Positions 4,219-24,502 of a DNA stretch of 24,641 nt are shown here, piece by piece; the stretch's first letter is position 1, and every line of letters starts with the position of its first letter. A program made the position numbers and the translations under genes. The notes beneath the pieces were generated by a model. The model was not told where the DNA came from, made no database searches, and saw only the letters and a program-made list of their open reading frames with translations. Source of the DNA: Spirochaetales bacterium (GTDB lineage Bacteria > Spirochaetota > Spirochaetia > SZUA-6 > RPPD01); NCBI GenBank assembly GCA_016934415.1, contig JAFGSW010000052.1, positions 1 to 24,641 of the forward strand. The letters are read 5' to 3'.

Positions 4219-4233
4219 ACGCTCTCCACCTCC

Positions 4234-5685
4234 ATGACCAACTACACCTACTCGACCAATGCCAGTTCCGGCAACATCACCTTCAACTTCACGAATGACG
4301 CGTCCGGCCGCGACGTGCAGTGCGATTACATCACGGTGAACGGATCGACCCGCCAGGCCGAGAACCAAGCCACCAACACGGCCGTCTATCAGAACGGCGG
4401 CTGCGGCGGGTCCAATAGCGAAATGATGCACTGTAACGGCTACATCGATTTCGGAACCATTTCCGGCGGCGGCAGCTCGTCCTCAAGCTCATCAAGCAGC
4501 TCATCGAGTAGCTCGTCCAGCAGTTCATCCAGCAGCTCCTCCTCCAGCAGCAGCGGTTCGTGTAATATACCGTCAATGCCTTCGTATTCGTCTCTGCCGT
4601 CCAATTCCTATCTCCCCGATCCCTTTACGTTCATGAACGGCTCGCGCATGACCAGCAAAAGTCAATGGAGTTGTCGTCGCGCGGAGATAGCCGCGTTGGC
4701 CCAGGAATTTGAATTCGGCCAGAAACCGGCGGCACCTTCCAATGTCACGGGTTCCTACAGCAACAACAACATCACGGTCAATGTCACCGAAAACGGCAAA
4801 TCGATTTCATTCTCGTGTTCGATCACCTATCCTAGTTCAGGGACCAAGCCTTATCCCGCCATCATCGGGGTCGGAGGCGATTCGTTGAACACTTCGGCTA
4901 TCACGCAGATGGGAGTCGCCCTCATTAATTTCCCCAACAACGACATTGCGGCCCAGAACGATAGCGGTTCCCGTGGCCAGGGCAAGTTCTACACAATTTA
5001 CGGCAGCAACCACTCGGCCGGCGCGTTGATCGCCTGGGCATGGGGCGTCGACTGCTTGATCACCGCCCTTGAAAAGACCTCGGCGGCCAACATCAATCCG
5101 GCCAAACTCGGCGTCACCGGGTGCTCCCGCAACGGGAAAGGCGCTTTGGCCGTCGGCGCTTTCTGCGAACGAATCGCACTCACCATACCCCAGGAATCGG
5201 GAGCCGGCGGCGCGGCCAGCTGGCGCGTTTCCGATTGGCAAAAATCCCAGGGTCAGAACGTCCAGACGCTTTCGCAGATCGTGACGGAGAACTGCTGGTT
5301 CAGATCGAATTTCTCTCAGTTCGGCGGCACGGCCAACAAACTCCCGTTCGATCATCACATGATCGCAGCGCTCTGCGCACCGCGAGCCCTGCTCTTCATA
5401 GAAAACACACAAATGGAGTGGCTGGGAAACGTGAGCACGTGGACGACCGGCAATGCGGCCCATTACGTATGGGAAGCGCTCGGCGTGCCGGACAAGATGG
5501 GTTTCTCACAAGCCGGCCATTCCGACCATTGCGGTTTCCCTTCTTCCCAGCAGCCTGAGGTGACCGCGTACATCCAGAAATTCCTGCTCGGCGGCAGCGG
5601 CAACACGACCGTTATGAAAACGGACGGGAATCTGAATTTCGACAAGGCCAAATGGGTCAATTGGTCGGTTCTGTCCTTGAATTAA
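4234..5685 (+). CDS. CE15 glucuronoyl esterase catalytic domain preceded by the remainder of CBM-X and a poly-Ser linker (C-terminal portion of the interrupted gene)
   Basis: Carries the CE15 consensus GVTGCSRNGKGAL (G-C-S-R-x-G, nucleophile Ser), followed by PRALLFIEN and GHSDHCGF. There is no signal peptide after the ATG at 4234. Stop is TAA. Confidence 0.65.
   Translation: MTNYTYSTNASSGNITFNFTNDASGRDVQCDYITVNGSTRQAENQATNTAVYQNGGCGGSNSEMMHCNGYIDFGTISGGGSSSSSSSSSSSSSSSSSSSSSSSSSSSGSCNIPSMPSYSSLPSNSYLPDPFTFMNGSRMTSKSQWSCRRAEIAALAQEFEFGQKPAAPSNVTGSYSNNNITVNVTENGKSISFSCSITYPSSGTKPYPAIIGVGGDSLNTSAITQMGVALINFPNNDIAAQNDSGSRGQGKFYTIYGSNHSAGALIAWAWGVDCLITALEKTSAANINPAKLGVTGCSRNGKGALAVGAFCERIALTIPQESGAGGAASWRVSDWQKSQGQNVQTLSQIVTENCWFRSNFSQFGGTANKLPFDHHMIAALCAPRALLFIENTQMEWLGNVSTWTTGNAAHYVWEALGVPDKMGFSQAGHSDHCGFPSSQQPEVTAYIQKFLLGGSGNTTVMKTDGNLNFDKAKWVNWSVLSLN
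4474..4557. repeat. Poly-Ser linker low-complexity repeat
   Basis: A run of about 27 Ser residues before the CE15 domain. Confidence 0.8.
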
Positions 5686-5705
5686 AAAAATTTTTGCGAA
5701 TGATT

Positions 5706-5769
5706 TCGCCGGGGATGGGAAGAACAGCGGCGGCGACACCGCGTTCGAATATCCCCGGCGCTTTTTTAT
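5706..5769. terminator. Candidate bidirectional terminator between convergent genes
   Basis: Inverted repeat gccggggat ... atccccggc with T-runs on both sides (cgcttttttat on + and aaaaaaattttt on the other side). Confidence 0.35.
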
Positions 5770-5782
5770 CGAACCGATAATT

Positions 5783-7567
5783 TCAGCGAAATGATAGTTT
5801 CCATACACCCGTGCCATTCGTTCCGGCAAAGATATTCGTGCCGCTTATAGCGAGCGAATAGACGTCGGTCTGCTGCATTCCGGAAGCGGCCTCAGCCCAG
5901 CTTGCGCCATTGTCGGTTGAAAAGAAAACGCCCCCGCCGTATGTTCCGGCGAAGACTGTCGTACCGCCCGACGCGAGTGAATTGATTTGAGTGTACGTCA
6001 GACCTGTGTTCACCGGACGCCAGCTTGCGCCATTGTCGGTTGAAAGAAAAACGCCCCCGCCGGGAGTCGCGGCGAAAATATCGGCGCCGCTTACGGAGAG
6101 AGAAAAAATCTGGGTGTTTGTCAAACCCGAATTGACCGGAGCCCAGCTGACGCCGTTGTCTGTGGACAGGAAAACACCGCCGCCGAACGTGCCCGCGAAG
6201 ACATTCCCGCCGCTTGAGGCGAGACACCCGACATTAAGGTTTGTCAACCCGGAATTAGCCGCTCTCCAGCTTGAACCGTTATCGGTGGTCAGAAACACGC
6301 CGCCGCCGAACGTGCCCGCGAAGACATTCCCGCCGCTTGAGGCGAGAGAATAGACCTGAGGAGTGGAGAGGCCCGAATTGACCGCTCTCCAGCTCGCGCC
6401 ATTATCAGCGGAGCGAAAAACACCCCCGCCGTTGGTTCCGGCGAAGATATTCGTTCCACTGGCGGCCAGACAAAAGACATTCGGGTTGGTCAAACCGGAA
6501 TTCATTTCTTTCCAGTTATCGCCGCTGTCGTCGAAAAGAAATACACCCGCGCCGTGGGTTCCGGCAAAAAGGTTCGTCCCATTTCTGACAATAGTTCCGA
6601 CAAAAGTATTCTTCAAACCCGAATTGACGCCCTTCCAGCTTTTGCCATTGTCGGTCGAAAGAAATACTCCTCCGCCGTCGGTTCCGGCGAGAACGTTTCC
6701 ACCGCTTACCACGAGTGAGTAGACGAACCGATTCGTCAATCCCGAATCCATCGGGCGCCAGCTCCGCCCCCCATCGGCGGAATAAAAAACACCGCCGGCC
6801 GTTCCGGCGAAAATATCCGAGCCGTCGGCCGCGAGCGAGTAGACATTCATATTCATCACGCCTGAATTGGCCGCTTTCCAGCTTGTCCCATTGTTCCTGG
6901 ATTCAAAAATCCCGCCGCCGAACGTTCCGGCGAAAACCACCGCGCCGCCGGCGGCGAGTGAAATGACGTGCGTATTTGTCAGGCTTGAATTCACCGGACG
7001 CCAGCTGACACCGTTATCGGAAGAATGAAAAACGCCGCTGTTCTCGCTGCCGGCATAAACGTTCGTTCCGCTGACGGCGAGAGAGGAAACATCAATGCCC
7101 AAGCCTGAATCGACGACACTCAACCCCGATCCAGTGTCGGTAATAACAAACACCCCACCGCTGGTGCCTGCGAATACCTTCGTTCCATTGACTGCCAGGG
7201 CGAAGCAGAAAGAATCTTTCGGGATGGCGTCGATCAATTCCCAGCTTCCGCCGTTATCAGTTGAAACGAAAACACCGCCATTGGTTCCGGCGAAGATATT
7301 CGGGCCGCCGACGGCAAGGGAATAAATATTACTTCTGGTCAGTCCCGAATTGACGGCATTCCAGCTACTGCCATTGTCGGTGGAATGGTAAACGCCGCCG
7401 CCTTCAGTTCCGGCGAAAATATTCTTGCCCTTGACCGCAAAGCAATGGATATACCCGCCATAAGGTCCGTTGGTTTGAACCCATCGCGGGGAAAGTTGAT
7501 TGGTGCGTGGACAACTCGGGGTAGACAACAGGGCGCCGAGCAAGAGAAGTTGAACTATCTTTTTCAT
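5783..7567 (-). CDS. Secreted BNR/Asp-box (Ycf48/sortilin-like) beta-propeller repeat protein
   Basis: ATG (revcomp) at 7567 has GGAG upstream. The signal peptide is MKKIVQLLLLGALLSTPS. About fourteen 41-aa repeats each contain FAGTxGGGVFxSTDNGxSWxxVNSGLTN. Stop is TGA. The plus-strand ORFs in this span are antisense artefacts of the repeats. Confidence 0.75.
   Translation of the reverse strand: MKKIVQLLLLGALLSTPSCPRTNQLSPRWVQTNGPYGGYIHCFAVKGKNIFAGTEGGGVYHSTDNGSSWNAVNSGLTRSNIYSLAVGGPNIFAGTNGGVFVSTDNGGSWELIDAIPKDSFCFALAVNGTKVFAGTSGGVFVITDTGSGLSVVDSGLGIDVSSLAVSGTNVYAGSENSGVFHSSDNGVSWRPVNSSLTNTHVISLAAGGAVVFAGTFGGGIFESRNNGTSWKAANSGVMNMNVYSLAADGSDIFAGTAGGVFYSADGGRSWRPMDSGLTNRFVYSLVVSGGNVLAGTDGGGVFLSTDNGKSWKGVNSGLKNTFVGTIVRNGTNLFAGTHGAGVFLFDDSGDNWKEMNSGLTNPNVFCLAASGTNIFAGTNGGGVFRSADNGASWRAVNSGLSTPQVYSLASSGGNVFAGTFGGGVFLTTDNGSSWRAANSGLTNLNVGCLASSGGNVFAGTFGGGVFLSTDNGVSWAPVNSGLTNTQIFSLSVSGADIFAATPGGGVFLSTDNGASWRPVNTGLTYTQINSLASGGTTVFAGTYGGGVFFSTDNGASWAEAASGMQQTDVYSLAISGTNIFAGTNGTGVWKLSFR
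5900..7450. repeat. Tandem ~123-bp coding repeats (about 14 copies) with near-perfect 50-bp identical stretches
   Basis: The stretch ccgccgccgaacgtgcccgcgaagacattcccgccgcttgaggcgaga occurs identically near 6177 and 6297. Periodic GGGVF/STDNG codon blocks run throughout. Confidence 0.65.
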
Positions 7568-7817
7568 GTTGCTCTCCTTAATGCGGCGTCAGAGTACGCG
7601 AAAACGATGCCCGCGGAAAAATCAATACTTCCTCAAGGCTCTCTTTTTAAAATATTCCACTTTCGGATGATAGCTAATGTGATCATTCGATGCAAGGTTC
7701 ATAAAATACAAATATAGACTCTATGGAATAATTCGTTTTCCATTACAAAAGCCGGATGAGCTCAAGGCCCCCCGCTTTTCCCTTCCATCACCGCCGCCGG
7801 GGCGTACATCGCCTTCG

Positions 7818-7847
7818 TTGACCATTACGCTCCATCGTGGTAATAAT
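7818..7847 (+). promoter_or_regulatory. Candidate sigma70-like promoter TTGACC-17/18-TAATAA(T) for the ECF sigma gene
   Basis: TTGACC lies at 7818–7823 and TAATAA/AATAAT at 7841–7847. The TTG used as ORF-track start at 7818 lies in the -35 box, which favours the ATG at 7857 as the start. Confidence 0.25.
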
Positions 7848-7856
7848 CTTTTCAGC

Positions 7857-8396
7857 ATGCCTTCCGTAAAAAACGTCCAGGATTTCATGAGCCTCTATCA
7901 CTCGTACTATCCGAAAATTTACGGCTTCTTTTATCGCGACTGCCTGCACCGCGAGACGGCGGAGGACCTCGCCGCCACCACCTTTACGAAAGCCCTCCAA
8001 TTCATCCAGCTCAAAAAAAAGGAAATCATCAATTTCAATGCCTGGATTTATCGAATTGCAACAAATGAGCTGTATTCGTATCTTAAACAATTGAGGAGAA
8101 GGCGGGCACGTATCGTCGAAAACACCGAAAAGCACCTCATCGACGGACTGCCGGACGAGACGCAGCGGCCGGACGAGTGCGCGGACTTTTGGCCGGTAAG
8201 GGATGCAGTCGCGCAGCTTCCTCCGGAAAAGCGGGTGCTGATCGAGATGCACTTTTTCGAAAAGATGGATTACAGCGAGATGGCGGAAGCGCTTAAATGC
8301 AAGGAAGCCACCCTGCGCTCGAAAATCCACCGAACTCTCAAATTACTGCGGACGTTCTTGAACAAGGGGGATCGCGAACGGGAGAACGGGCCATGA
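7857..8396 (+). CDS. ECF (sigma-70 family, group 4) RNA polymerase sigma factor
   Basis: Region-2-like segment is YYPKIYGFFYRDCLHRETAEDLAATTFTKAL and region-4-like segment is LPPEKRVLIEMHFFEKMDYSEMAEALKCKEATLRSKIHRTL. The TGA stop overlaps the next start (ATGA at 8393–8396). The start could instead be the TTG at 7818. Confidence 0.8.
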   Translation: MPSVKNVQDFMSLYHSYYPKIYGFFYRDCLHRETAEDLAATTFTKALQFIQLKKKEIINFNAWIYRIATNELYSYLKQLRRRRARIVENTEKHLIDGLPDETQRPDECADFWPVRDAVAQLPPEKRVLIEMHFFEKMDYSEMAEALKCKEATLRSKIHRTLKLLRTFLNKGDRERENGP

Positions 8397-10048
8397 AAAA
8401 GAACGAGAACGACAGACTCTACGAGCGGCTGAAAAACCTCATGGTGCCCGAAATCGCCAACCCGGAGCACGAACGCGCCTTGCGTGAACGATTGGAAAAG
8501 ATGATCGCCGAACAGGAGAGGCCCAGACCCGCCATCCGTCCTTTTTCCGTGGTCGCCGGCGCTTTGGCGGCCGCGGCCGCCGCGGCGGTCGCTCTTGTCC
8601 TCGTTCTCCGCCCGCCGGGCGGCGCGGCCGTCGACCTGGCGGCCGACGAGAGGAGCGCGGTCGCCGCCCCGGCGGTACTGAGTTTGAGCGGCGGCGATGT
8701 GACCGCGCAGTCGGGCGGCGTCACCGAGCGGCTCGCGCTCGGAAGCGCGCTCAAACCCGGCGATACGGTCTCCGTTTCCGGACACGCGCCCTGCGAGTTC
8801 CAGATCGACGAAAGAGTATTTCTCCGCCTCGATCCTTCTTCTGCATTTGTGTTCCGGGGTGCTTGGTCCGCCGCGGATGGCACTCATGTTTCCGTGGAGT
8901 TGCGATCGGGCACCGCCGTTGTGCATGACCTGAATACAGACGGTTATCTGACTGTGTATACGCCCTTCGCGGTTTTTCAGACCGTGGGTACGGCGTTTCT
9001 GGTGAGGGTGGAACACGGCCGGTCCGCCGCTTTGGCGGTCGGTGAAGGCCGCGTGCGAGTCCTTTCCCTTCCCCCGCGAACCGCAATCCTCAGAGAGGGT
9101 GTTGGAGCGGGCCGGTCGGTATCGGTGGATTCAAGCGGCGCCCTCACGGACCGGGGCGCCGTTTCCGAGGAGGATGGGCTGAAGATCGACGAGATTCGAA
9201 AAATCGCTTTTCTTCCCGATCCGTCACGGAGACGTTCGGTGCGCGTCACGGTGGTAAGTGAACCGGCTGACGCCACCATCGCCGTCGACGGCGTTCCGCG
9301 CGGGCGGGGGACGCTCTTTTTCCTGGCCGCACCGGGTGTCCGTTATACGGTGACGGCCTCCGGTCCGGGCCGTGAAACTCAAAGCCGGACCGAATCCTTT
9401 CAGGAAGATAAAACGATCGCCTTCCGGCTCAAGCGAACGATCGGCCCGCCGAAAACGCCCGAGCGAACTTCCGTTCCCGAAACACGCCGTGAGATCGAAG
9501 CGAGTCCCGTTCCCGGCCGGGACGGAGGAGCGGTCGTTCTGCCGACGGCCTCACCGGAACTCACCGGCCGCGTCTCCGATTGGCACGGCCTGGCTCCGGT
9601 GATTGCGGATCCTTCAGGCGACATGAACGCCTCCGACGCGGGCACGGACATTTCCGACGTTTTCCTGGCGCACGACGAAACGTTCCTCTTCTTCGGGATC
9701 AAGTTCGAGAACGGAACCCTCGATCCAGGCGTCCAGCCCGAGATCGCACTCTCCCTCGCTCCCGCTTCCGGTCGGCGGGTGGAGCTCTCGGGCCGGACCG
9801 CAGACAAGAAATGGCTGGCCGAAGTTAAAATCTTCAAAGACGGCGCACTTGCGTCCACTTCCGACGCGGCAGGTAAAATCGTCGTCGGCGACGGTTTCCT
9901 GGAAATGAAACTCCCTCTTGAGGCCGTCCTCTCGGCCGGCACGCCGGGCGAGATTTACAAAGCCAAAGCCACCCTTACGATCCAGAAATACGGCCGACTC
10001 CGGGTTATCGCCGATGAGACGGAAGCGCGGACGGTTCTCTTTTACTAG
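8393..10048 (+). CDS. Membrane-spanning anti-sigma factor with periplasmic FecR-like region, PEGA domain and C-terminal domain of unknown function
   Basis: Translationally coupled to the sigma gene. A single TM helix (FSVVAGALAAAAAAAVALVLVL) follows about 60 cytoplasmic residues. PEGA-like segment is RVTVVSEPADATIAVDGVPRGRGTLFFLAAPGVRYTVTASGPG. About 170 C-terminal residues are unassigned. Stop is TAG. Confidence 0.7.
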   Translation: MKKNENDRLYERLKNLMVPEIANPEHERALRERLEKMIAEQERPRPAIRPFSVVAGALAAAAAAAVALVLVLRPPGGAAVDLAADERSAVAAPAVLSLSGGDVTAQSGGVTERLALGSALKPGDTVSVSGHAPCEFQIDERVFLRLDPSSAFVFRGAWSAADGTHVSVELRSGTAVVHDLNTDGYLTVYTPFAVFQTVGTAFLVRVEHGRSAALAVGEGRVRVLSLPPRTAILREGVGAGRSVSVDSSGALTDRGAVSEEDGLKIDEIRKIAFLPDPSRRRSVRVTVVSEPADATIAVDGVPRGRGTLFFLAAPGVRYTVTASGPGRETQSRTESFQEDKTIAFRLKRTIGPPKTPERTSVPETRREIEASPVPGRDGGAVVLPTASPELTGRVSDWHGLAPVIADPSGDMNASDAGTDISDVFLAHDETFLFFGIKFENGTLDPGVQPEIALSLAPASGRRVELSGRTADKKWLAEVKIFKDGALASTSDAAGKIVVGDGFLEMKLPLEAVLSAGTPGEIYKAKATLTIQKYGRLRVIADETEARTVLFY

Positions 10049-16604: not shown

Positions 16605-16678
16605 GGGCCCATAGCTCAGTCGGTTAGAGCGGCTGACTCATAATCAGTAGGTCCCTGGTTCAAGTCCAGGTGGGCCCA
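16605..16678 (+). tRNA. tRNA-Met (anticodon CAT), elongator type (or tRNA-Ile2 if lysidinylated); CCA not encoded
   Basis: Hand-folded cloverleaf: acceptor GGGCCCA/TGGGCCC, D-arm GCTC-AGTCGGTTA-GAGC, anticodon stem GCTGA/TCAGT with loop CTCATAA, T-arm CCTGG-TTCAAGT-CCAGG, discriminator A. The G1:C72 pair argues against an initiator. Confidence 0.85.
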
Positions 16679-16967: not shown

Positions 16968-17399
16968 TTAAGCTCCTTTGATTTCGATCTTTTTCGGTTG
17001 GGCTTCCGGTTTCTTGGCGAGGGTGAGGATGAGCACGCCGTTTTTAAACTGAGCGTCAATATGCTCCCTATTCACGTCCTCGGGAAGCGCAAAGCTCCTT
17101 GCGAACGAATAATCCCGCCGCTCACGCACCAGATAACCATTCTTTTTTTCCTCTTTCTCTTCCTTTCTGGCTGAGGAAATGGTTAAAAGATTGTGCTCGA
17201 TACGTACTTCGATATCTTTCTCGGACAACCCTGGGAGATCGGCTTCAAGCACGTAGCCGTCCTTCTCCTCACGCACGTCAACCTTGGGATAATTTCTCTC
17301 AAAGCCCCAAAAAGTGCCATCCGGCAGGTCATCGAATAGTCTGTCGATTTCCATGTCCAGGAGACCGGTTGTCAACGGCTGATATTTTACCAGGTTCAT
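16968..17399 (-). CDS. Small heat-shock protein, Hsp20/alpha-crystallin family
   Basis: ATG (revcomp) at 17399 has GGAGG 8 nt upstream. The alpha-crystallin domain is PKVDVREEKDGYVLEADLPGLSEKDIEVRIEHNLLTISSAR...FALPEDVNREHIDAQFKNGVLILTLAK. The ORF-track start at 17552 is rejected. Stop is TAA. Confidence 0.85.
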   Translation of the reverse strand: MNLVKYQPLTTGLLDMEIDRLFDDLPDGTFWGFERNYPKVDVREEKDGYVLEADLPGLSEKDIEVRIEHNLLTISSARKEEKEEKKNGYLVRERRDYSFARSFALPEDVNREHIDAQFKNGVLILTLAKKPEAQPKKIEIKGA

Positions 17400-17440
17400 A
17401 CTCTTACCTCCTTCGGTAAATTGTTTTACATACATATAAT

Positions 17441-17456
17441 TGCAATAGCTGTGCCA
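17441..17456 (-). promoter_or_regulatory. Sigma-54 (RpoN) -24/-12 promoter TGGCAC-N5-TTGCA upstream of hsp20
   Basis: The minus strand reads TTGGCACAGCTATTGCAATT, a perfect match to TGGCAC-N5-TTGCA. It lies about 45 nt upstream of the hsp20 ATG. An AT-rich region further upstream could hold enhancer sites. Confidence 0.55.
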
Positions 17457-17817
17457 AAAAGAAACTGGATTTGACCTAAATAATTCTTTATACAATAAAA
17501 AAATATTTTTTTCCAGATATATTAAGAATATTCTGCTTAGTGAAATTGTCATTATGATACACTGTGTAAAAATAGTTATATTATTGTATCATTAATATAC
17601 ATAGAAGTGGCTGTTTTATTTTAACGCGGGTCAATACACCAAAGATGATCAATAGATAGCCATCAGGAGCTCATGTATTCAGCTAATTCATGAAAGGGAA
17701 ATGTGTTAATTTGTTAGTTAGTATAGGAAAAAGTATTTACAGATCGCTATAGAAGCAATTTCGCAGCAATCTTGGGGGCAATGAGATAAATTTTTCTTCA
17801 AAAGAAAAATAATCTAC

Positions 17818-17846
17818 TTGACAAAAAAAAGAAATTATCTTAAATT
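17818..17846 (+). promoter_or_regulatory. Candidate sigma70-like promoter TTGACA-17-TAAATT for the gntR-led operon
   Basis: TTGACA lies at 17818–17823 and TAAATT at 17841–17846. The RBS GGAG and ATG at 17885 follow. Confidence 0.35.
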
Positions 17847-17884
17847 ATTAGTGTATTATTACATTAGTACAATTGGAGTGCCTA

Positions 17885-18301
17885 ATGTATGATATGTTGG
17901 AATTTACGCTTGATCCGAAAAGCGGAGTTCCGTTTTATAAGCAAATAATTCTTCAAATAGAAATGGCCATTGCCGACGGGCGCTTAAAGACCGGCGACCA
18001 GTTGCCGACCGTTCGTGGCCTGGCGGTCGATCTCTCGCTCAACCCTAATACAGTGGCCCGGGCCTACAGCGAACTCGAAATTCGCGGGATAGTGACCACG
18101 CAGCAGGGAAGCGGGACCTATATAAGCGACAAGCGTATCGAAATGTCGGACGTCGAACGGGAGAAGGTCCTGGCCGAAATGGTCCGCACGTTCGTCTCCA
18201 ATGCCTCGTCGTACGGTTTTTCCATAAAAGAGATAATCGAATATTTCAAAGAGATAGAGCGAACCCCGACGGCGGCGCTCAAGGAGGAGAGATCGCAATG
18301 A
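17885..18301 (+). CDS. GntR-family transcriptional regulator, YtrA-like short subfamily
   Basis: wHTH segment is YKQIILQIEMAIADGRLKTGDQLPTVRGLAVDLSLNPNTVARAYSELEIRGIVTTQQGSGTYI. The C-terminal domain is short (about 50 aa). The stop overlaps the next start (ATGA). A TTG at 17873 is an alternative start. Confidence 0.75.
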   Translation: MYDMLEFTLDPKSGVPFYKQIILQIEMAIADGRLKTGDQLPTVRGLAVDLSLNPNTVARAYSELEIRGIVTTQQGSGTYISDKRIEMSDVEREKVLAEMVRTFVSNASSYGFSIKEIIEYFKEIERTPTAALKEERSQ

Positions 18302-19401
18302 AAATCACCGAACAGGCGAAGAAATTCATTCATAATCTCCCTTCATTCCGATTCATCATCGACTTTAAATCGAATCCGCTTACTCTTTTTCTCAATGTCC
18401 TCTTTTTCATTGGTGGAGTCCTTGTAGAAATCGCCATATATCCGAAGGTTCCGATCTTTTACCTTCTCTGCATCGGTTTGGGCGCTCTCGTCGCCGCCGG
18501 CGCCATCGCCGTCCTACCCAAATGGACGACCTCCATCAAGGTGCTGGCCCTGGGGTGGCTCGCCGCTTACTTCCTGCTCGACACCACCTACGTCCCCGTA
18601 CTCGCCGTCACCTCCTTCGGCCTCCTCTTCTCAGCGTGCTTCCAGCTCGCAGACCATTGGGAACGAGCCATCATCCTCCGCTTCGGGAAGTTCTCGCGAA
18701 TCAAGGGCCCGGGATTTTTCCTCATCTGGCCCGTCATGGAGCGGATCGCCGATTACGTCGACACCCGCATCCGGTCCACCGATTTCTCCGCGGAAACCAC
18801 CCTCACCCACGATACCGTGCCGGTCAATGTCGACGCCATCGCCTTCTGGATGATCTGGGACTCGAAAAAGGCGATCCTCGAGCTCGAGAACTTTCTCGAC
18901 GCGGTCATCCTCTCCGCCCAGACCGCGCTCCGCGACGCGATCGGCAAGCACGACCTGGCCACGCTCCTTTCCGAGCGCGACCGCCTGGGACGCGAAATTC
19001 AGGAGATCCTCGAGGCCAAGACATCGCCCTGGGGCATCACCATCCTCTCCATCGAGATCCGGGAGATCATCATCCCCAAGGAGCTCGAGGACGCGATGAG
19101 CAAGCGCGCCCAGGCCGAGCGCGAACGCCAGTCGCGCGTCATTCTCGGCACCGCCGAGGCGGAAATCGCGGAGAAATTCGCGCAGGCCGCGGAACGCTAC
19201 AAGAACAACCCCACCGCGCTTCATTTGCGCGCCATGAACATGATCTATGAAGGACTGAAAAAGAACGGCTCCATCATGCTCGTTCCCTCGTCCGCATTGG
19301 AAACGATGTCGCTGGGGACCGTGCTGGGCGCGACCGCCCTGGAAAAAGCCGAAAAGGCCGAAACCGGCAAAGAAAAGGAGAATTCCGATGGTCAAGGTTA
19401 A
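18298..19401 (+). CDS. SPFH/band-7 (stomatin/prohibitin-like) protein with about 110-aa N-terminal polytopic membrane domain
   Basis: AAGGAGGAG RBS precedes the ATG. Four predicted TM helices come before the SPFH core (RAIILRFGKFSRIKGPGFFLIWPVMERIADYVDTRIRS...). A coiled-coil Ala/Glu-rich tail follows (AQAERERQSRVILGTAEAEIAEKFAQAAERYK). Confidence 0.8.
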   Translation: MKITEQAKKFIHNLPSFRFIIDFKSNPLTLFLNVLFFIGGVLVEIAIYPKVPIFYLLCIGLGALVAAGAIAVLPKWTTSIKVLALGWLAAYFLLDTTYVPVLAVTSFGLLFSACFQLADHWERAIILRFGKFSRIKGPGFFLIWPVMERIADYVDTRIRSTDFSAETTLTHDTVPVNVDAIAFWMIWDSKKAILELENFLDAVILSAQTALRDAIGKHDLATLLSERDRLGREIQEILEAKTSPWGITILSIEIREIIIPKELEDAMSKRAQAERERQSRVILGTAEAEIAEKFAQAAERYKNNPTALHLRAMNMIYEGLKKNGSIMLVPSSALETMSLGTVLGATALEKAEKAETGKEKENSDGQG

Positions 19402-20068
19402 TCACGTCGTCAAGAATTACACGATCGGCAAGCTCGAGGTGCACGCCCTGCGCGGGGTGGATCTCGAAATCAAGGACGGCGAGTTCATGTCGATCGCCGG
19501 CCCCTCCGGGTCGGGGAAAACCACGCTCTTGAATCTCATCGGCTGCCTCGACGCCTGCACGGGGGGGGACATCCTCATCGACGGCGAGTCAATCGGGGGC
19601 AAGAAGCGCGACGAGCGCGCCCTCCTGCGGCGGCGGAAGATCGGTTTCGTCTTCCAATCGTTCAACCTCATTCCGGTGCTCACCGCCTACGAGAACGTCG
19701 CCTTCGCCCTTTCCCTTTTGAAGACGGGGCCGGGCGAAACCAGGGAGCGGACGATGAAGATCCTCGAGGAGGTGGGGCTCACGGGGCTGGAGAAACGCTT
19801 TCCCAACGAGCTCTCGGGCGGGCAGCAGCAGCGGGTGGCCGTGGCCCGCGCCCTGGTGAAAAAGCCGACGCTCGTGCTGGCCGACGAGCCGACCGCCAAC
19901 CTCGATTCGGACACCGGCCGGGAGATCCTCAAGCTCATGGAAGACCTGAACCGGACGCACGGCACCACCTTCGTGTTCTCCACCCACGATCCCATGGTCA
20001 TGGACTTCGCTCACCGGCTCGTGTTGCTTCACGACGGGGCGATCGTGTCGGACAAGGCGAAAAAGTAA
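19388..20068 (+). CDS. ABC transporter ATP-binding protein, LolD/MacB/FtsE-like
   Basis: Walker A is GPSGSGKTT, the signature is LSGGQQQRVAVARAL, Walker B is LVLADEPTANLD, and the H-loop is STHD. It overlaps the upstream gene by 14 bp. Confidence 0.9.
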   Translation: MVKVNHVVKNYTIGKLEVHALRGVDLEIKDGEFMSIAGPSGSGKTTLLNLIGCLDACTGGDILIDGESIGGKKRDERALLRRRKIGFVFQSFNLIPVLTAYENVAFALSLLKTGPGETRERTMKILEEVGLTGLEKRFPNELSGGQQQRVAVARALVKKPTLVLADEPTANLDSDTGREILKLMEDLNRTHGTTFVFSTHDPMVMDFAHRLVLLHDGAIVSDKAKK

Positions 20069-20080
20069 AGGAGGCGAAGA

Positions 20081-21340
20081 ATGGGTTTCATCATCACCCT
20101 GGCGTTCAAGAACCTGTTCCGGTACCGCCGGCGGACGATCATCACCGCGATCGCCATCGCTACCGGGGTATCGATGTATATCTTCATCGACGGCTGGCTG
20201 CAGGGCGCCCAAGCCGAATCGGTCCGGAACCTTGTAAAATTCGAGACCGGCTCGGCGCGCGTCGTGAACACCACGTATTGGGAGCAGAAGGATTTCCTCC
20301 TGCCGAAATATGACATTCCCGACCCGGCGCCGGCCGAAGCCGCGCTCGAGAAGGCGGGCTATACCGTGGCGCCGCGCGTCACGATCTTCGCCGAGGCGTC
20401 CAAGACCGGCGGCGCGGGCGAGGCGTTCACGCTGCAGATCGCGGGCATCGACCCGGCGCGCGATGGGAAAATCTTCGACTTCGCCAACGCGCTGACGCCG
20501 AAAGGCGCCGTCTACCTCACCGCCGGCCGCTCGGAGATCATGCTCGGGAGCAATGCGGCCGACCGGCTCGGCGTCGTGCTCGACGACTCGGTGCGGCTCA
20601 CCACCCGCACCAGGGACGGCGTCTGGACGAGCCTCGAGACGCGCGTCGTCGCGATTCTCTCGACGCCCGATCCGATCGTCAACAACATCATGGGGTTCGT
20701 GCCGCTCGATGTGCTCCAAAACGCCCTGCAGATGGGGAATGGGGTCACCGACATCGTCATCGGCTTTCCCGAGTGGCTCGACCCGGACAAGGAAACGGCC
20801 GCCATCAACGCTCTCCTCGCCCCGCTGCCCGGCAGCTCCGACTACGTCGCCAAGAGCTTCAACGATCTCGCCCCCGAATTCGGCCAGATCGCCCAGTCGA
20901 AGAGCGGCGGCACGAAGATTATCCTTTTCCTCATCTTCATCATCGCCGCCATCGGCATCTCCAACACGGTGCTCATGGCGGTGTACGAGCGCGTCCGCGA
21001 AATCGGCATGATGCGCGCCTTGGGCATGAAGAACGGCGCGGTCATGTGGTGCTTCATCGTCGAGGCGTTCGGCATCGGCCTCGTCGGCGCGCTGTTCGGC
21101 GTCATACTCGGCGTGTTCGCCGAACTCTACATGGTGAACATCGGCATCGACCTCACCCCCATGCTCGAGAACATGGGCAATATCGGCTATCGGATTCTTG
21201 GGGTGTCAAAATCCCTATGGAATCCGGATACGATCGTTACCGCGGCGATCGTCAGCATCATTTTTTCCGGCATTATGGCCATTCTGCCCGCGCGCCGCGC
21301 CCTGAAAAAAGAAATCACCGAGTGCCTGCGCGTCAAATGA
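20081..21340 (+). CDS. ABC transporter permease, FtsX/LolC-E/MacB-type (4 TM with large periplasmic loop)
   Basis: AAAGGAGG RBS. TM1 is TIITAIAIATGVSMYIFI. A roughly 230-aa periplasmic domain is followed by three C-terminal TM helices with the conserved VYERVREIGMMRALGM motif. Confidence 0.85.
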   Translation: MGFIITLAFKNLFRYRRRTIITAIAIATGVSMYIFIDGWLQGAQAESVRNLVKFETGSARVVNTTYWEQKDFLLPKYDIPDPAPAEAALEKAGYTVAPRVTIFAEASKTGGAGEAFTLQIAGIDPARDGKIFDFANALTPKGAVYLTAGRSEIMLGSNAADRLGVVLDDSVRLTTRTRDGVWTSLETRVVAILSTPDPIVNNIMGFVPLDVLQNALQMGNGVTDIVIGFPEWLDPDKETAAINALLAPLPGSSDYVAKSFNDLAPEFGQIAQSKSGGTKIILFLIFIIAAIGISNTVLMAVYERVREIGMMRALGMKNGAVMWCFIVEAFGIGLVGALFGVILGVFAELYMVNIGIDLTPMLENMGNIGYRILGVSKSLWNPDTIVTAAIVSIIFSGIMAILPARRALKKEITECLRVK

Positions 21341-21374
21341 CGCGGGGATCGGGTGAAAGAAAAGGAGAGGACCG

Positions 21375-22637
21375 ATGAAAATCGCGAGTATCGCGTTACG
21401 CAATATTTTCAGGAACAAGTGGCGGAGTTTCCTCAGCCTGTCGGCCATCGCGCTGGTCACTTTCACCATCGTCTTCCTGTTCGCCATCATGGAGGGCATG
21501 AAACTCGACCAGCGGACCACGATGGCGAAATTCGCCACGGGCGACGCCCGGATCAGAAACGCGGGGTTTGAGAAATACCAGTTCATCGCCCCCGAGGAAT
21601 TCATGATTCCGGATTACGACAAGGCCATTGCCGCGCTCCGCGCCGATCCGGCGGTCGAGACGGCCGTAGGACGCTTTCAGTTCCCCGCCCAGGTGGCCGT
21701 GAAGTGGGAGGTGATTTTTGGGATGAATTGGCCCGGCGAGACGAACAGCACCCTGGCGACCGGCCTTGATTTCAGCGACGAAAAGAGTTTCTTTTCACTG
21801 GCGTCCTACCTCGTTCCCGGCGGCCGGCTTCCCGGCCAAGGAGAAATCCTCGTTTCCGGCGGCTTTGCCAAGAAATTCAACCTCAAGCCAGGCGATTCGT
21901 TGATATTATATTCGGGCGGCACCTGGGGGCAACAAGACGCAGTACTAAAGATTTCAGGCATCGTCGCTCTCCCGCTCGCCCAACTCAATGTAAATTCGAT
22001 ATACATGGCGCTGTCGGCGGCCCAGAACCTGCTCCTGCGCCAAGGCCAGGCCGAGGAAATTCTCATACGCTTCAAACCGGGCGTCGCGGTCGGCGATGCC
22101 GTGGCCGCCGTACGGACCGCGCTCGCGCGAAACGGATTCAAAGATCTGGACGTGAAGCCCTGGAACGAGATCGGCAATGCCGGCACCTTCATAGATCTTG
22201 CGTCGAAAATTTACTATTTCATGGCATTTTTCTTCTTCATCCTCGGCACGACGGTTATCATCAACACCACCATGATGGTGATCTACGAGCGCATGCGCGA
22301 GATCGGAACGCTGCGGGCCATGGGCATGACCGGCCCGGAGATGATCCGATTGTTTTTTATGGAAGCCTTTTTCATCGGCGCGGCCGCGGCCTTCGTCGGC
22401 GTCATTCTCGGTTCGGCGCTGATACTCCCCTTGAGCGTTTCCGGCGTCGACTTCGGGAAATTAATCGACCTGGGGAAAACCAATCTCGACATCTCCGACG
22501 TCATCTACCCGCAGCTCAATCTGGTGTCTACCCTATTCGTCTTCTTCTATTCGACGGCCGTGTCGTCGCTCATCTCCTTTATACCGACGCGCCGGGCGGC
22601 CAAGATCGAGCCGGTTGAGGCGCTTCGGTCGATATAA
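21375..22637 (+). CDS. ABC transporter permease, FtsX/LolC-E-type, second paralogue
   Basis: AAAGGAGAGG RBS. Same topology as the first permease, with the IYERMREIGTLRAMGM motif. The pair of distinct permeases resembles a LolC/LolE heterodimer. Confidence 0.85.
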   Translation: MKIASIALRNIFRNKWRSFLSLSAIALVTFTIVFLFAIMEGMKLDQRTTMAKFATGDARIRNAGFEKYQFIAPEEFMIPDYDKAIAALRADPAVETAVGRFQFPAQVAVKWEVIFGMNWPGETNSTLATGLDFSDEKSFFSLASYLVPGGRLPGQGEILVSGGFAKKFNLKPGDSLILYSGGTWGQQDAVLKISGIVALPLAQLNVNSIYMALSAAQNLLLRQGQAEEILIRFKPGVAVGDAVAAVRTALARNGFKDLDVKPWNEIGNAGTFIDLASKIYYFMAFFFFILGTTVIINTTMMVIYERMREIGTLRAMGMTGPEMIRLFFMEAFFIGAAAAFVGVILGSALILPLSVSGVDFGKLIDLGKTNLDISDVIYPQLNLVSTLFVFFYSTAVSSLISFIPTRRAAKIEPVEALRSI

Positions 22638-22661
22638 ATCGATTTTATTATGGAGGAATAT

Positions 22662-23405
22662 ATGACGATAAAAAGATCGATCTGGCTGGCGCTTCTCGTG
22701 GTATTGCCTGCGACGGTTTTCGCCCAAATGACGGCGGAGGAAGTCGTGCGGCGGTTGGAAAAAAACGAGGTGTACACGAGCTCCAAGAGCTCGGGAAAGC
22801 TTCTCATCACCAACCAATTCGGGACCAAGACGAAAACCTTTACCGCGGCCTCTCAGGGCGCCGAAAAGCTTCTCCTGGAGTTCACCAACAAGGAGGAACG
22901 GGGCCAGAAGATCCTGCGCCTGAACGACCAGATCTTCGTCTATTACCCGCGTTCCAACAGCGTGGTCAGCATGCAGGGCGGGGCGCTCAAGGACAGCATC
23001 TTCGGTTCGGACTTCACCTATGAGGACCTCACGGGCGAGAAGAGCATCCTCAACCTGTACAAGGTCGAATTCGCCCAACCGTCCACGGAAACGGTCGACG
23101 GCGTTCAGTGCTACCATTTAAGGCTCACGGGCATCACTTCCGTCGCCTATCCCTTCCAGGAGCTCTGGGTGGAGACCGCGCGTTTGGTCCGGCGCAAGGC
23201 CGTATTTTTCTCGCTCACCCGCGAGCCGCTCAAGGAAATGGAAGTAAAGGAGACGAAGGAAGTTTCCGGGAAGATCTTCCCCTCCCGTTTCGTCATCACC
23301 GATCTCATCAAGAAAAATTCCTCGACCGAGTTCGCGCTGGACTCGATCCAGATCAACCCGCGCCTCGACGCCCGCCAGTTTTCCCTGGAGAGGTTGAAAT
23401 TTTGA
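22662..23405 (+). CDS. Periplasmic LolA-like (outer-membrane lipoprotein-sorting/carrier-like) protein
   Basis: GGAGG RBS lies 6 nt before the ATG at 22662 (an alternative ATG is at 22650). Signal peptide is MTIKRSIWLALLVVLPATVFAQ. About 225 mature residues are predicted to be beta-rich. The family call is tentative and rests on size, the signal peptide and placement next to a Lol-like ABC. Confidence 0.45.
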   Translation: MTIKRSIWLALLVVLPATVFAQMTAEEVVRRLEKNEVYTSSKSSGKLLITNQFGTKTKTFTAASQGAEKLLLEFTNKEERGQKILRLNDQIFVYYPRSNSVVSMQGGALKDSIFGSDFTYEDLTGEKSILNLYKVEFAQPSTETVDGVQCYHLRLTGITSVAYPFQELWVETARLVRRKAVFFSLTREPLKEMEVKETKEVSGKIFPSRFVITDLIKKNSSTEFALDSIQINPRLDARQFSLERLKF

Positions 23406-24502
23406 AGCGAATTGTCTGCTGTATGATACTCGTCCTCGCCGCCGCCGCTCTCCTGAACGCAGACCTGGAGACTTCCGTGGAGATCATGGGCCTGACGACG
23501 GCCACCAGGGACGACGCCGGCAACCTCGTTTTCGGCCTGCTGGCCAAGGGCGATCTCACCTTCACGGCGATCGCCAACTCGAACGTGAAAGCCGTCACGG
23601 AGATCCTCGGTTATTGGTCGGGGAGCCTGTTTACAAACCCGGCGGACCTGCTCAAGCGCCTGTACGTCAAGGTGGATTTCGGCGGCCTCACGGCCCTCGT
23701 CGGGAAGGCGCGCGTCACCTGGGGGGAAGGCTTCGTGTTCAACGCCGGGGACGTCGTGTTCGGCAGCCTGACGCCGCTCACCAATCTCACCCAGTCGCAG
23801 CTCCGCGACCAGACCGACTGGCTCGCCGATCTCACTCTGTACCTGGGCTCCATGACCTATGTCGAGGGCATATTTTTACCCTATTCGCCGCTCTCTCCCG
23901 CGGGCCTGCCGTACACCGACGTCTATCACCTCCGGGGCGGCGGGCGGTTCGTGACCGACCTGGGAGGCCTGAAAATCGAGACCGGCTATTTATTCAAGGC
24001 CGATGAGGCGATTCACCACCCCTATCTGAGTCTGCACGGCAGCCTTTTTTTCGACTTCGACCTGTCAGCCGCCCTCAAGATTCCCGCCGTCGATTATACG
24101 GACGACAAGCTGAAACGGGGATTGGAGCTTTCCGCGGGCCTTTTTCGCATGTTTCAGTTCGATGACGGCGGCGTGCTCACGATACGGCTGGAAGCGGCCG
24201 TCAGGCCTTTCGGGCTGTGGGAAAAAGCCGCGGTCCCTTCCGATCCCGCCCTTTACGGTCTGCTCCTCTATCCCGAAATAACGTATTCGCCGGGTTCGGA
24301 CGTCTCCATCCAGCTGCGGGCCATGATCAACCCCATTGACGGCTCCGGCATGGCGTCCGCCGGCCTTTCCTTCGGAATTTACCAGGGATTCACCCTGGTT
24401 TGCTTTGCTTCGGGCATGTGGGGCGACGGCAGTGACACAGTTTTCTCTTTCGACCGGCCGGGCGACCTCGCTTTTTCAGCGGGTCTCGATTTTATTTACT
24501 GA
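23402..24502 (+). CDS. Putative outer-membrane beta-barrel protein
   Basis: A TTG at 23402 overlaps the upstream stop by 4 bp, giving the signal peptide MKRIVCCMILVLAAAALLNA. An alternative ATG is at 23423. The sequence has alternating hydrophobic beta-strand patterns and a C-terminal aromatic LDFIY. The upstream part of ORF 23108.. is an out-of-frame overlap with the LolA-like gene and is rejected. Confidence 0.5.
   Translation: MKRIVCCMILVLAAAALLNADLETSVEIMGLTTATRDDAGNLVFGLLAKGDLTFTAIANSNVKAVTEILGYWSGSLFTNPADLLKRLYVKVDFGGLTALVGKARVTWGEGFVFNAGDVVFGSLTPLTNLTQSQLRDQTDWLADLTLYLGSMTYVEGIFLPYSPLSPAGLPYTDVYHLRGGGRFVTDLGGLKIETGYLFKADEAIHHPYLSLHGSLFFDFDLSAALKIPAVDYTDDKLKRGLELSAGLFRMFQFDDGGVLTIRLEAAVRPFGLWEKAAVPSDPALYGLLLYPEITYSPGSDVSIQLRAMINPIDGSGMASAGLSFGIYQGFTLVCFASGMWGDGSDTVFSFDRPGDLAFSAGLDFIY

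Follow-up and report, generated by a model that had tools for sequence, protein, structure and literature searches.

The operon studied here lies in contig JAFGSW010000052.1 of a Spirochaetales bacterium (assembly GCA_016934415.1); the whole stretch analysed, 24,641 nucleotides (nt) long, is called the window below. The listing of open reading frames (ORFs) confirmed seven ORFs on the plus strand at 17885-24502. The first encodes a GntR repressor of the YtrA type (17885..18301, 138 aa), assigned from PF00392 and PDB relatives. It is followed by the gene of a slipin, a stomatin-type SPFH protein with an N-terminal bundle of four transmembrane (TM) helices (18298..19401, 367 aa; Band_7, PDB relatives, and TM prediction), and by the gene of an ATP-binding cassette (ABC) ATPase of the LolD/MacB/FtsE/YtrE type (19388..20068, 226 aa; ABC_tran, PDB relatives, and motifs). 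The next two genes encode type VII ABC permeases with FtsX and MacB_PCD domains, namely permease 1 (20081..21340, 419 aa; Pfam, hydropathy, and PDB relatives) and its paralogue permease 2 (21375..22637, 420 aa; Pfam and PDB relatives). The last two encode a secreted LolA-like protein of family PF17131 (22650..23405, 251 aa, or 247 aa from position 22662; Pfam and PDB relatives) and a dedicated 18-stranded outer-membrane beta-barrel (23402..24502, 366 aa), which has no Pfam family and was recognized by its AlphaFold2 fold.

The seven genes are tightly packed. The gntR and slipin genes meet in a 4-nt ATGA overlap (18298-18301), the slipin and ATPase genes overlap by 14 nt (19388-19401), and the LolA-like and barrel genes overlap by 4 nt (23402-23405). 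From the ATPase gene through permease 1 and permease 2 to the LolA-like gene, the intergenic gaps are 12, 34, and 12 nt, and with the NCBI start of the LolA-like gene (22662) the last of them becomes 24 nt. The contig ends 139 nt past the barrel gene, and terminator-like sites in the region were no more frequent than expected by chance. An earlier interpretation made from the DNA letters (the sequence-only reading) had placed seven same-strand genes at the same coordinates, with overlaps or gaps of no more than 34 bp, and the ORF listing bears this out. Its family assignments for the GntR, SPFH, ATPase, two FtsX permease, and LolA-like proteins were likewise upheld by Pfam and NCBIfam.

The distribution of the operon was investigated in one genome per GTDB species, and the scan returned 41 loci. 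It should be noted that the 93-sequence alignment of the barrel family was too diverse for scan patterns; a 14-sequence alignment was used, and the scan is therefore biased toward close relatives. All of the 41 loci are in Spirochaetota, including Spirochaetaceae and Spirochaetales metagenome-assembled genomes (MAGs), Ca. Marispirochaeta, Oceanispirochaeta, Salinispira, and Sphaerochaeta. Because the patterns drew on close relatives, the host names of distant barrel-family members from the profile search were also checked (n = 10), and every named host was a spirochaete, including cultured Alkalispirochaeta species.

When the seven window proteins were searched against these loci with tblastn, the order ABC, FtsX1, FtsX2, LolA-like, barrel was found in every one of the 29 genome loci in which 4.3 kb or more of DNA is available upstream of the barrel gene. 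The same core order also holds in each of the shorter contigs, as far as the DNA extends. In addition, a search seeded with the slipin recovered the seven-gene operon in Sphaerochaeta halotolerans and in one further assembly, and a search seeded with the LolA-like protein likewise recovered the core order. Meanwhile, the flanking genes vary from genome to genome. Since the gene order recurs in dozens of genomes, the arrangement is not due to chance. Conservation of the neighbourhood was one of the two tests on which the sequence-only reading had staked its interpretation, and the neighbourhood proved to be strongly conserved.

The first two genes behave differently from the other five. Among the 29 loci, 18 have both the GntR and the slipin gene, 9 have neither, 1 has the slipin gene only, and 1 is truncated within the slipin gene. 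Thus, the functional core consists of five genes (ATPase, two permeases, LolA-like protein, and barrel) with exchangeable regulatory heads, and GntR and slipin form an optional module that moves together as a single head. The seven-gene unit proposed earlier therefore stands as far as the five-gene core is concerned, and GntR and slipin are not integral parts of it, since both are absent in 9 of the 29 loci and a TetR or ArsR-type regulator is found in some. The locus with the slipin gene only is that of Spirochaetaceae bacterium bin59 (CP070696.1, locus positions 4925-5935), where the slipin has 336 aa and is possibly shortened at its N terminus; no GntR gene was detectable upstream of it.

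Among the GntR-less loci, a TetR regulator occupies the regulator position in three genomes. In a Treponema sp. MAG (locus positions 3712-10036), GntR and slipin are replaced by a 225-aa protein without a Pfam match and a 100-aa regulator of the ArsR/HTH_5 type. The final gene of this locus encodes a protein of 435 aa that belongs to the barrel family (hmmsearch E = 2e-35). The other GntR-less loci have no obvious regulator upstream. In one of the GntR-less loci, a patatin-like phospholipase ORF with a GGGIRG motif lies on the same strand directly upstream of the ABC gene (locus positions 4724-5755); this was seen in a single locus. Because a TetR or ArsR-type protein takes the regulator position in some loci, control by a YtrA-type protein is not intrinsic to the core. 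Furthermore, Candidatus Marispirochaeta associata JC231 has two paralogous cassettes, one with the GntR-slipin head and one without it, which suggests that the two copies have diverged in substrate or in regulation.

In the window, the GntR protein has a helix-turn-helix (HTH) domain at residues 18-80 (PF00392, E = 5e-17) and only about 55 residues beyond it. Its best NCBIfam matches are the Rv1152 and PmtR families, both below the cut-off, and its best PDB matches are GntR proteins of 121-134 aa (Lmo0741, Lmo2241, 6sbs, and 2du9). The short length, the winged HTH followed by about 55 residues, and the short solved relatives indicate a YtrA-type regulator without a ligand-binding domain, in agreement with the earlier assignment. 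The protein also shares the other features of the YtrA subfamily, as the N-terminal winged HTH is followed by a short C-terminal region and the gene is the first of an ABC operon. A GGAG sequence is located 6 nt upstream of the gntR start codon (ATG at 17885).

Upstream of gntR lies an AT-rich spacer of 485 nt (17400-17884; GC about 0.38), with the promoter at its operon-side end. The best candidate site of the region is a sigma-70-like promoter on the plus strand at 17818..17846, TTGACA-17-TAAATT, with 10 of 12 matches, and related loci repeat TTGACA and a TAAATT-like -10 box at an equal distance from gntR. Between the -10 box and the ribosome-binding site, at 17851..17872, there is a 22-nt inverted repeat, GTGTATTA-TTACAT-TAGTACAA, which is conserved across loci and is a putative GntR operator. 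The alignment of the regions upstream of gntR across loci gave the family consensus TTGTAyTA-N6-TAGTACAA. The copy in the window is unique there, with 0 matches expected by chance. The Rfam scan found no riboswitch or other known RNA in the AT-rich leader.

To score this element, a position weight matrix was built from 19 sites, and sites of at least 23 bits were taken as strong. All 22 GntR loci scanned contain one strong site, and in every case it lies immediately upstream of gntR; loci outside the training set (L021, L041, and L053) are among them. In the same scan, no strong site was found in GntR-less loci. Some loci contain an additional, weaker copy that lies between the -35 and -10 boxes. 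A partial direct repeat located at 17579-17594 was rejected, since the scoring did not identify it as an operator. The occurrence of a conserved palindrome at the regulator's own promoter, specific to GntR loci, strongly suggests that GntR represses its own operon through this 22-nt element.

The transporter encoded by the core has intact ATPase motifs (Walker A GPSGSGKT, signature LSGGQQQR, Walker B LVLADEPT, and H-loop STHD). The ATPase matches ABC_tran with E = 1e-34, and its best NCBIfam matches are DevA (221.7 bits, below the cut-off), LolD, and FtsE. Its PDB relatives are MJ0796, YtrE, LolD, MacB, and BceA. Both permeases contain the FtsX (PF02687) and MacB_PCD (PF12704) domains, and hydropathy and Pfam indicate four hydrophobic segments in each, with a large periplasmic domain in the loop between TM1 and TM2. 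The closest PDB relatives of the permeases are LolF, YtrF, LolE, LolC, and MacB. The transporter thus has the features of the type VII (MacB-superfamily) class, that is, four TM segments, a periplasmic domain between TM1 and TM2, an FtsX domain at the C terminus, and a cognate nucleotide-binding domain.

The two permeases are 28% identical to each other over their full length. Two distinct paralogous permeases imply a heterodimer, probably of the kind seen in LolCE. By its sequence features, the transporter is a type VII ABC transporter with a LolCDE layout; the layout of one ATPase and two different FtsX permeases had been recognized before, and the PDB relatives and the comparison of the permeases confirm it. 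Known transporters of type VII collect their substrates in the periplasm or at the outer leaflet of the inner membrane. In addition, no member of the membrane fusion protein (MFP, HlyD) family and no TolC-type outer membrane factor or efflux protein (OMF/OEP) was found by Pfam and NCBIfam among the seven operon proteins. The matches of PADLOC were limited to generic ABC and FtsX proteins, and a known defence system was rejected.

With YtrE and YtrF among the closest solved relatives of the transporter and a YtrA-type regulator at the head of the operon, it might be asked whether the complex transports anything. It could instead be a mechanotransmission or sensing module like FtsEX, BceAB, or YtrBCDEF, in which the LolA-like protein and the barrel would be effectors or a signalling relay. 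The ytr operon of Bacillus subtilis is induced by inhibitors of the lipid II cycle and alters cell-wall properties, with no known substrate (PMC12772383, PMC8060467). However, a carrier of LolA fold and a channel-like barrel that are strictly syntenic with the transporter are most simply understood as partners in a cargo hand-over, and ytrGABCDEF has no such partners (PMC12772383). Moreover, the regulator position is taken by a TetR or ArsR-type protein in some loci. We consider this explanation very unlikely.

The LolA-like protein is a clear member of PF17131 (LolA_like/TP_0789-like), with 129.5 bits against a gathering score of 30, E = 1.5e-37, and 182 of 184 profile positions covered. Its PDB relatives are 3buu, described as LolA superfamily protein NE2245 (E = 1e-7), and 4z48. 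It matches neither the Pfam LolA family (PF03548) nor any NCBIfam model. The sequence-only reading had allowed that profile hidden Markov models might place the 251-aa protein in an unrelated family; they placed it in LolA_like/TP_0789-like. The protein has a signal peptide of the signal peptidase I (SPase-I) type and lacks a lipobox, as do 113 of 115 full-length homologues. It should therefore be a soluble, periplasmic protein. No published experimental characterization of PF17131 was found in the literature, and the automatic annotation "outer membrane lipoprotein-sorting protein" may be misleading for this family.

The barrel protein matches no Pfam or NCBIfam family, has a signal peptide, and ends in ...FIY. 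A look-up of its exact sequence gave no match, because gene callers had used a later start codon. AlphaFold2 with the 14-sequence alignment predicted an 18-stranded barrel (pLDDT 76, pTM 0.67), and the best folds are 18-stranded monomeric barrels like AlgE, OprD, and Wzi, not TolC. The profile search against 1.84 billion representative proteins found 334 cluster representatives, 197 of them at E <= 1e-30. Judging from these matches, the family is real but modest in size. A C-terminal Y or F is present in 135 of 148 full-length members. Thus, the protein combines a signal peptide, a C-terminal aromatic beta-signal, and a predicted 18-strand fold, as is typical of the 18-stranded outer-membrane barrels.

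Among 93 relatives of the barrel scanned with Pfam, 24 had weak matches to Wzi (PF14052; best E = 0.002) and 4 to DUF1302 (PF06980; best E = 3e-5); the barrel of the window had neither. One family member is named "Alginate export domain-containing" in UniRef. The most conserved stretch of the family is G101-D136 (WGEGFVFNAGDVVFG...LRD; 23702-23809), a long loop between strands 5 and 6 with many invariant residues. Its position is that of constriction loop L3 in porins, and no other part of the model is predicted with less confidence (pLDDT 32-34). The loop is likely to be a functional constriction or docking loop in the predicted structure. In the loci examined, the barrel gene either overlaps the LolA-like gene or directly adjoins it, which indicates that the barrel is a dedicated component and not a stray porin. 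The earlier call of an outer-membrane barrel for this 366-aa protein agrees with the predicted fold, and the synteny with the LolA-like gene argues against a porin of unrelated function.

The closest barrel folds include OprD/Occ, ChiP, and maltoporin, so the direction of transport has to be weighed. The operon could serve the uptake of a hydrophobic nutrient, with the barrel admitting it, the LolA-like protein carrying it, and the ABC complex aiding its entry at the inner membrane. For instance, Pseudomonas mutants of DUF1302 and DUF1329 proteins show fitness defects on fatty esters and Tween 20 (bioRxiv 10.1101/2020.07.04.188060), as might be expected for uptake. However, no catabolic genes are conserved beside the operon. 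In addition, to our knowledge, no type VII (MacB/Lol-type) ABC transporter imports its substrate. Uptake is thus highly improbable.

Another explanation is an alternative Lol-like route, in which the ABC complex would extract a subset of the acylated lipoproteins, the LolA-like protein would ferry them, and the barrel would stand in for the missing LolB, placing them in the outer membrane or flipping them to the surface. Several results point in this direction. The transporter has the LolCDE layout, with LolF, LolE, and LolC as the nearest solved permeases and LolD among the top matches of the ATPase, and the carrier is within the LolA superfamily. For Borrelia, the literature reports no homologue of LolB and an export mechanism that is not yet settled, and the same role has been proposed for BBJ23-BBJ29 (PMC13078400).

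Nevertheless, the scores are far from those of true Lol proteins. The permeases reach 90.2 and 78.5 bits with the LolC/LolE model against the TIGR02212 cut-off of 362, and the ATPase reaches 214.2 bits with LolD against the TIGR02211 cut-off of 307.75. The carrier belongs to PF17131 and not to LolA PF03548, and the Pfam and NCBIfam scan of the seven proteins found no LolB-like gene in the operon. Repressors of three families, a varying adjacent regulator, and occasional duplication would be unusual for an essential sorting pathway. Furthermore, the plasmid collection, which contains Borrelia plasmids, gave no homologue from them with the LolA-like query. We also know of no role as a lipoprotein insertase for an 18-stranded AlgE/OprD-like barrel with a constriction loop. 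The sequence-only reading had proposed a divergent Lol pathway or an undescribed system; membership in the Lol pathway is contradicted by the scores, by PF17131, and by the lack of LolB in the operon. A Lol-like route of the kind outlined above is, in our view, unlikely.

The slipin of the GntR-slipin head matches Band_7 (PF01145, E = 4e-37, 128.6 bits) and is labelled "slipin family protein" by NCBI. Its best PDB matches are the PH (Pyrococcus) stomatin (E = 3e-36), human stomatin (E = 3e-33), and E. coli QmcA. Full-length homologues are numerous, and they retain the N-terminal region. AlphaFold2 placed TM helices at residues 27-47, 53-72, 76-93, and 96-112 with a pLDDT of about 90, and hydropathy also gave four segments. 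Only this TM bundle is modelled confidently, and the model of the SPFH domain is poor (pLDDT below 50). The sequence-only reading had counted four extra TM helices, which is not correct; four is the total, about three more than in an ordinary slipin.

In the slipin, positive charges are concentrated at three places, namely the N-terminal tail, the loop joining helices 2 and 3, and the stretch that follows helix 4. This pattern suggests a cytoplasmic location of both termini and hence of the SPFH domain. A cytoplasmic SPFH domain has been reported for QmcA. NfeD is the canonical operon partner of slipins, and no NfeD gene was found in the operon by the Pfam and NCBIfam scan of the seven proteins. 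A fusion to NfeD was also rejected, as the four-TM N-terminal region matches no Pfam family. Speculatively, the slipin may scaffold or cage the transporter, sense the state of the membrane, or act as a partner of a repressor that has no ligand domain of its own.

The presence of a slipin suggests a link to membrane organization, and this bears on the possibility that the operon moves an endogenous lipid or glycolipid between the membranes. Such a system, similar to Lpt or Mla, might carry a glycolipid, a carotenoid, or a hopanoid-like compound and would serve outer-membrane biogenesis or stress homeostasis. PF17131 proteins also pair with lipid-type transporters of the MMPL/resistance-nodulation-division (RND) class in Haliovirga, in Porphyromonas and Prevotella, and with TP0790 in T. 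pallidum. The order of ABC transporter, carrier, and outer-membrane protein parallels the logic of Mla and Lpt. Furthermore, the DUF1302 and DUF1329 proteins of Pseudomonas were proposed to mediate the outward transport of a cell-envelope constituent (bioRxiv 10.1101/2020.07.04.188060). However, no lipid-biosynthesis genes are conserved beside the operon, and its flanks differ among genomes. The local repressors and the variable adjacent regulator also speak against a housekeeping role, and the data at hand indicate no candidate lipid. Trafficking of an endogenous lipid thus seems distinctly doubtful.

The gene content of the operon, the folds and families of its products, the synteny, and the conservation of the operator are shown by this analysis. 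On this basis, we propose that the operon directs the inducible export of a membrane-active hydrophobic or amphiphilic compound from an ABC extractor to a soluble carrier and then to a dedicated barrel, and we give this proposal an even chance of being right. The strict synteny and translational coupling of the extractor, the carrier, and the barrel indicate a relay. In addition, repressors of three families, an exchangeable head, duplication in one genome, and the lack of conserved biosynthetic neighbours make inducible extrusion the most likely function of such a relay. Support also comes from precedents, since AmeABCD and the model for Borrelia BBJ23-BBJ29 join a pump, a LolA-superfamily protein, and an outer-membrane barrel for apolar molecules, and TetR-controlled operons of MMPL and PF17131 genes are strongly inducible in Porphyromonas and Prevotella (PMC10434189, PMC10470040). 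The system is most likely accessory, serving efflux or detoxification rather than housekeeping envelope biogenesis, because the adjacent regulator varies between loci and one genome has two copies.

In the proposed mechanism, a dimer of the ATPase would power a heterodimer of the two FtsX/MacB-type permeases. This ABC complex would draw the hydrophobic or amphiphilic substrate out of the inner membrane's outer leaflet or out of the periplasm. The soluble PF17131 carrier would then receive the substrate and shield it in the periplasm, and would hand it to the barrel, from where it would enter the outer membrane or be released to the outside. The conserved loop that folds into the barrel is probably the passage or the docking site. 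At the DNA level, the YtrA-type GntR protein would occupy the 22-nt palindrome over the transcript start and thereby repress its own operon. The slipin probably scaffolds or gates the transporter, or links the state of the membrane to derepression. Which way the substrate moves, how it is handed on, what the slipin does, and to which class the substrate belongs are inferences within this scheme.

Some points weigh against this proposal. First, the fold of the barrel is as close to diffusion channels (OprD, ChiP, and maltoporin) as to the exporter AlgE, so that uptake would be possible on the fold alone. Second, some type VII ABC systems, such as FtsEX and possibly YtrBCDEF, do mechanical work and not transport. 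Third, a local repressor hints at inducible efflux but is no diagnostic sign of it. Finally, the cytoplasmic orientation of the SPFH domain follows solely from the positive-inside rule and the even number of helices.

A bolder view would be that the five-gene core is a LolB-independent route of the spirochaetes (the named hosts of the family), in which acylated cargo such as surface lipoproteins or glycolipids passes from the inner membrane through the barrel to the cell surface, and a cytoplasmic cage of the four-TM slipin around the ABC extractor reports the state of the membrane to the YtrA repressor, which has no ligand domain. We regard this combination as quite improbable. If it were true, it would be a new coupling of an SPFH microdomain to transcription and envelope trafficking.

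Some neighbouring features of the window should also be mentioned. An HSP20 gene on the minus strand (16968-17399) is divergent from the operon across the AT-rich spacer. It was rejected as a component of the system, because it is a neighbour in the closest clade only (L001, L003, L005, L007, and L044) and no GntR operator lies near it; its adjacency is synteny within one clade. Upstream of the HSP20 gene, there is a tRNA gene on the plus strand (16605-16678), which is the sole Rfam match in the window (RF00005, 75 bits). Farther away, the regions 3046-5685 and 5783-7567 encode a CBM60/malectin-domain protein, a glucuronyl esterase (GCE_fung, E = 5e-99), and a BNR/sortilin-repeat protein, which are unrelated to the operon. 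These genes suggest that the host degrades plant polysaccharides.

The inducible export proposed here would matter for several reasons. Two links of MacB-type ABC machines to the outer membrane are known, the tunnels formed with MFP and TolC and the relay of LolA and LolB. If the proposal is true, the operon would represent a third such link in diderm bacteria, made by a soluble LolA-like shuttle and a barrel of its own. It would also provide a function for the widespread PF17131 family and for the barrel family, which comprises about 330 sequence clusters and is not represented in Pfam. In addition, the operon bears on how hydrophobic cargo is transferred to the outer membrane of spirochaetes, for which no LolB has been reported (Borrelia, PMC13078400). 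It is also a tractable case of an SPFH protein that is genetically bound to one transporter and one repressor. Cultured hosts exist (Sphaerochaeta halotolerans and Alkalispirochaeta spp.), and the hypothesis is therefore testable.

No published description of this operon was found in the literature. Its design is not without precedent, as shown by BBJ23-BBJ29 and AmeABCD. The closest published idea is BBJ23-BBJ29 on plasmid lp38 of Borrelia burgdorferi, which was proposed on structural predictions alone to move a non-polar ligand from the inner to the outer membrane (Nixon et al., Biosci Rep 2026, PMC13078400). Both systems include an ABC ATPase, a MacB-like type VII permease, an SPase-I-secreted LolA-like protein annotated as "outer membrane lipoprotein-sorting protein", and a dedicated barrel. 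However, the Borrelia barrel is of the Omp85 type (BamA/TamA-like), whereas the one described here is 18-stranded and AlgE/OprD/Wzi-like. The Borrelia system has a single permease, modelled as a homodimer, instead of two paralogues, and its additional proteins are two TPR proteins and BBJ29 instead of a GntR repressor and a slipin. The plasmid-collection search, which included homology to BBJ28, found no Borrelia plasmid match to the LolA-like protein of the window.

The closest systems with some experimental support are the clusters of DUF1302, DUF1329, BNR, and RND proteins. These clusters also consist of an outer-membrane protein, a periplasmic protein of the LolA superfamily, and an inner-membrane pump, and they are tied to apolar compounds. 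For instance, PP_0765 and PP_0766 of P. putida show cofitness with an RND pump on fatty esters (bioRxiv 10.1101/2020.07.04.188060). In the monoterpene system AmeABCD of Castellaniella defragrans, AmeB was grouped with PDB 4Z48, 3BK5, and 3BUU (PMC6394551), and two of these relatives, 3BUU and 4Z48, are the PDB matches of the window carrier. Unlike the present operon, the DUF1302/DUF1329 systems use an RND pump, are found in Proteobacteria, have much larger DUF1302 and DUF1329 proteins (about 605 and 451 aa), and lack a slipin and a YtrA-type regulator.

PF17131 proteins are also found in operons with a TetR regulator and an MMPL pump in Bacteroidota, Fusobacteriota, and T. pallidum, where they likewise stand beside an inner-membrane exporter and a local repressor. 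The pump there is of the MMPL/RND class, in contrast to the ABC transporter of the present operon, and no barrel homologue is reported beside these operons. Such operons of Porphyromonas and Prevotella respond to a shortage of iron or haem with strong induction (PMC10434189, PMC10470040), and in T. pallidum, TP_0789, the namesake of PF17131, adjoins TP0790 (PMC8407342). On plasmid pHIC of Haliovirga abyssi (Fusobacteriota), the locus positions 3435-7726 encode TetR, MMPL, and PF17131 proteins with no adjacent barrel, and a second PF17131 gene stands beside an ABC gene at the edge of the locus. The pairing of MMPL and PF17131 in Haliovirga shows that PF17131 proteins partner at least two classes of pump.

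Meanwhile, plasmid pPP1 of Persicobacter psychrovividus (Bacteroidota) carries an unannotated cassette (locus positions 3075-8696) of a TetR regulator, a 378-aa secreted beta-rich protein, an ABC ATPase, two FtsX proteins, and a PF17131 protein. Homology of the 378-aa protein to the spirochaete barrel was not demonstrable, as the hhalign E value was 0.11 and the hmmsearch result did not surpass that of shuffled sequences. The protein may be an analogous outer-membrane barrel.

The operon also has something in common with three well-known systems. Like the Lol pathway, it has one ATPase gene, two FtsX-type permeases with periplasmic domains, and a soluble protein of the LolA superfamily. Unlike the Lol pathway, it scores below the equivalog cut-offs and has a PF17131 carrier, a beta-barrel in place of the lipoprotein LolB, a local repressor, and a varying regulatory module. 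With MacAB-TolC and DevBCA-HgdD, it shares a permease of the MacB superfamily, a cognate ATPase (DevA being the top NCBIfam match), and an exit at the outer membrane. However, a soluble LolA-like carrier and a monomer-type 18-stranded barrel replace the HlyD-family adaptor and the TolC-type OMF of those systems. As in ytrGABCDEF of B. subtilis, a short YtrA-type GntR autorepressor heads an operon with a type VII ABC pair, and YtrE and YtrF are among the best PDB matches. The ytr operon differs in having a second ABC pair (YtrBCD) and in lacking the LolA-like protein, the outer-membrane barrel, and the slipin, because its host is monoderm. Thus, what is particular to the present operon is the combination of an ABC transporter of type VII, a PF17131 carrier, and a barrel of the AlgE/Wzi/DUF1302 class, which among the named hosts is found in spirochaetes only and is accompanied by a conserved operator and a four-TM slipin.

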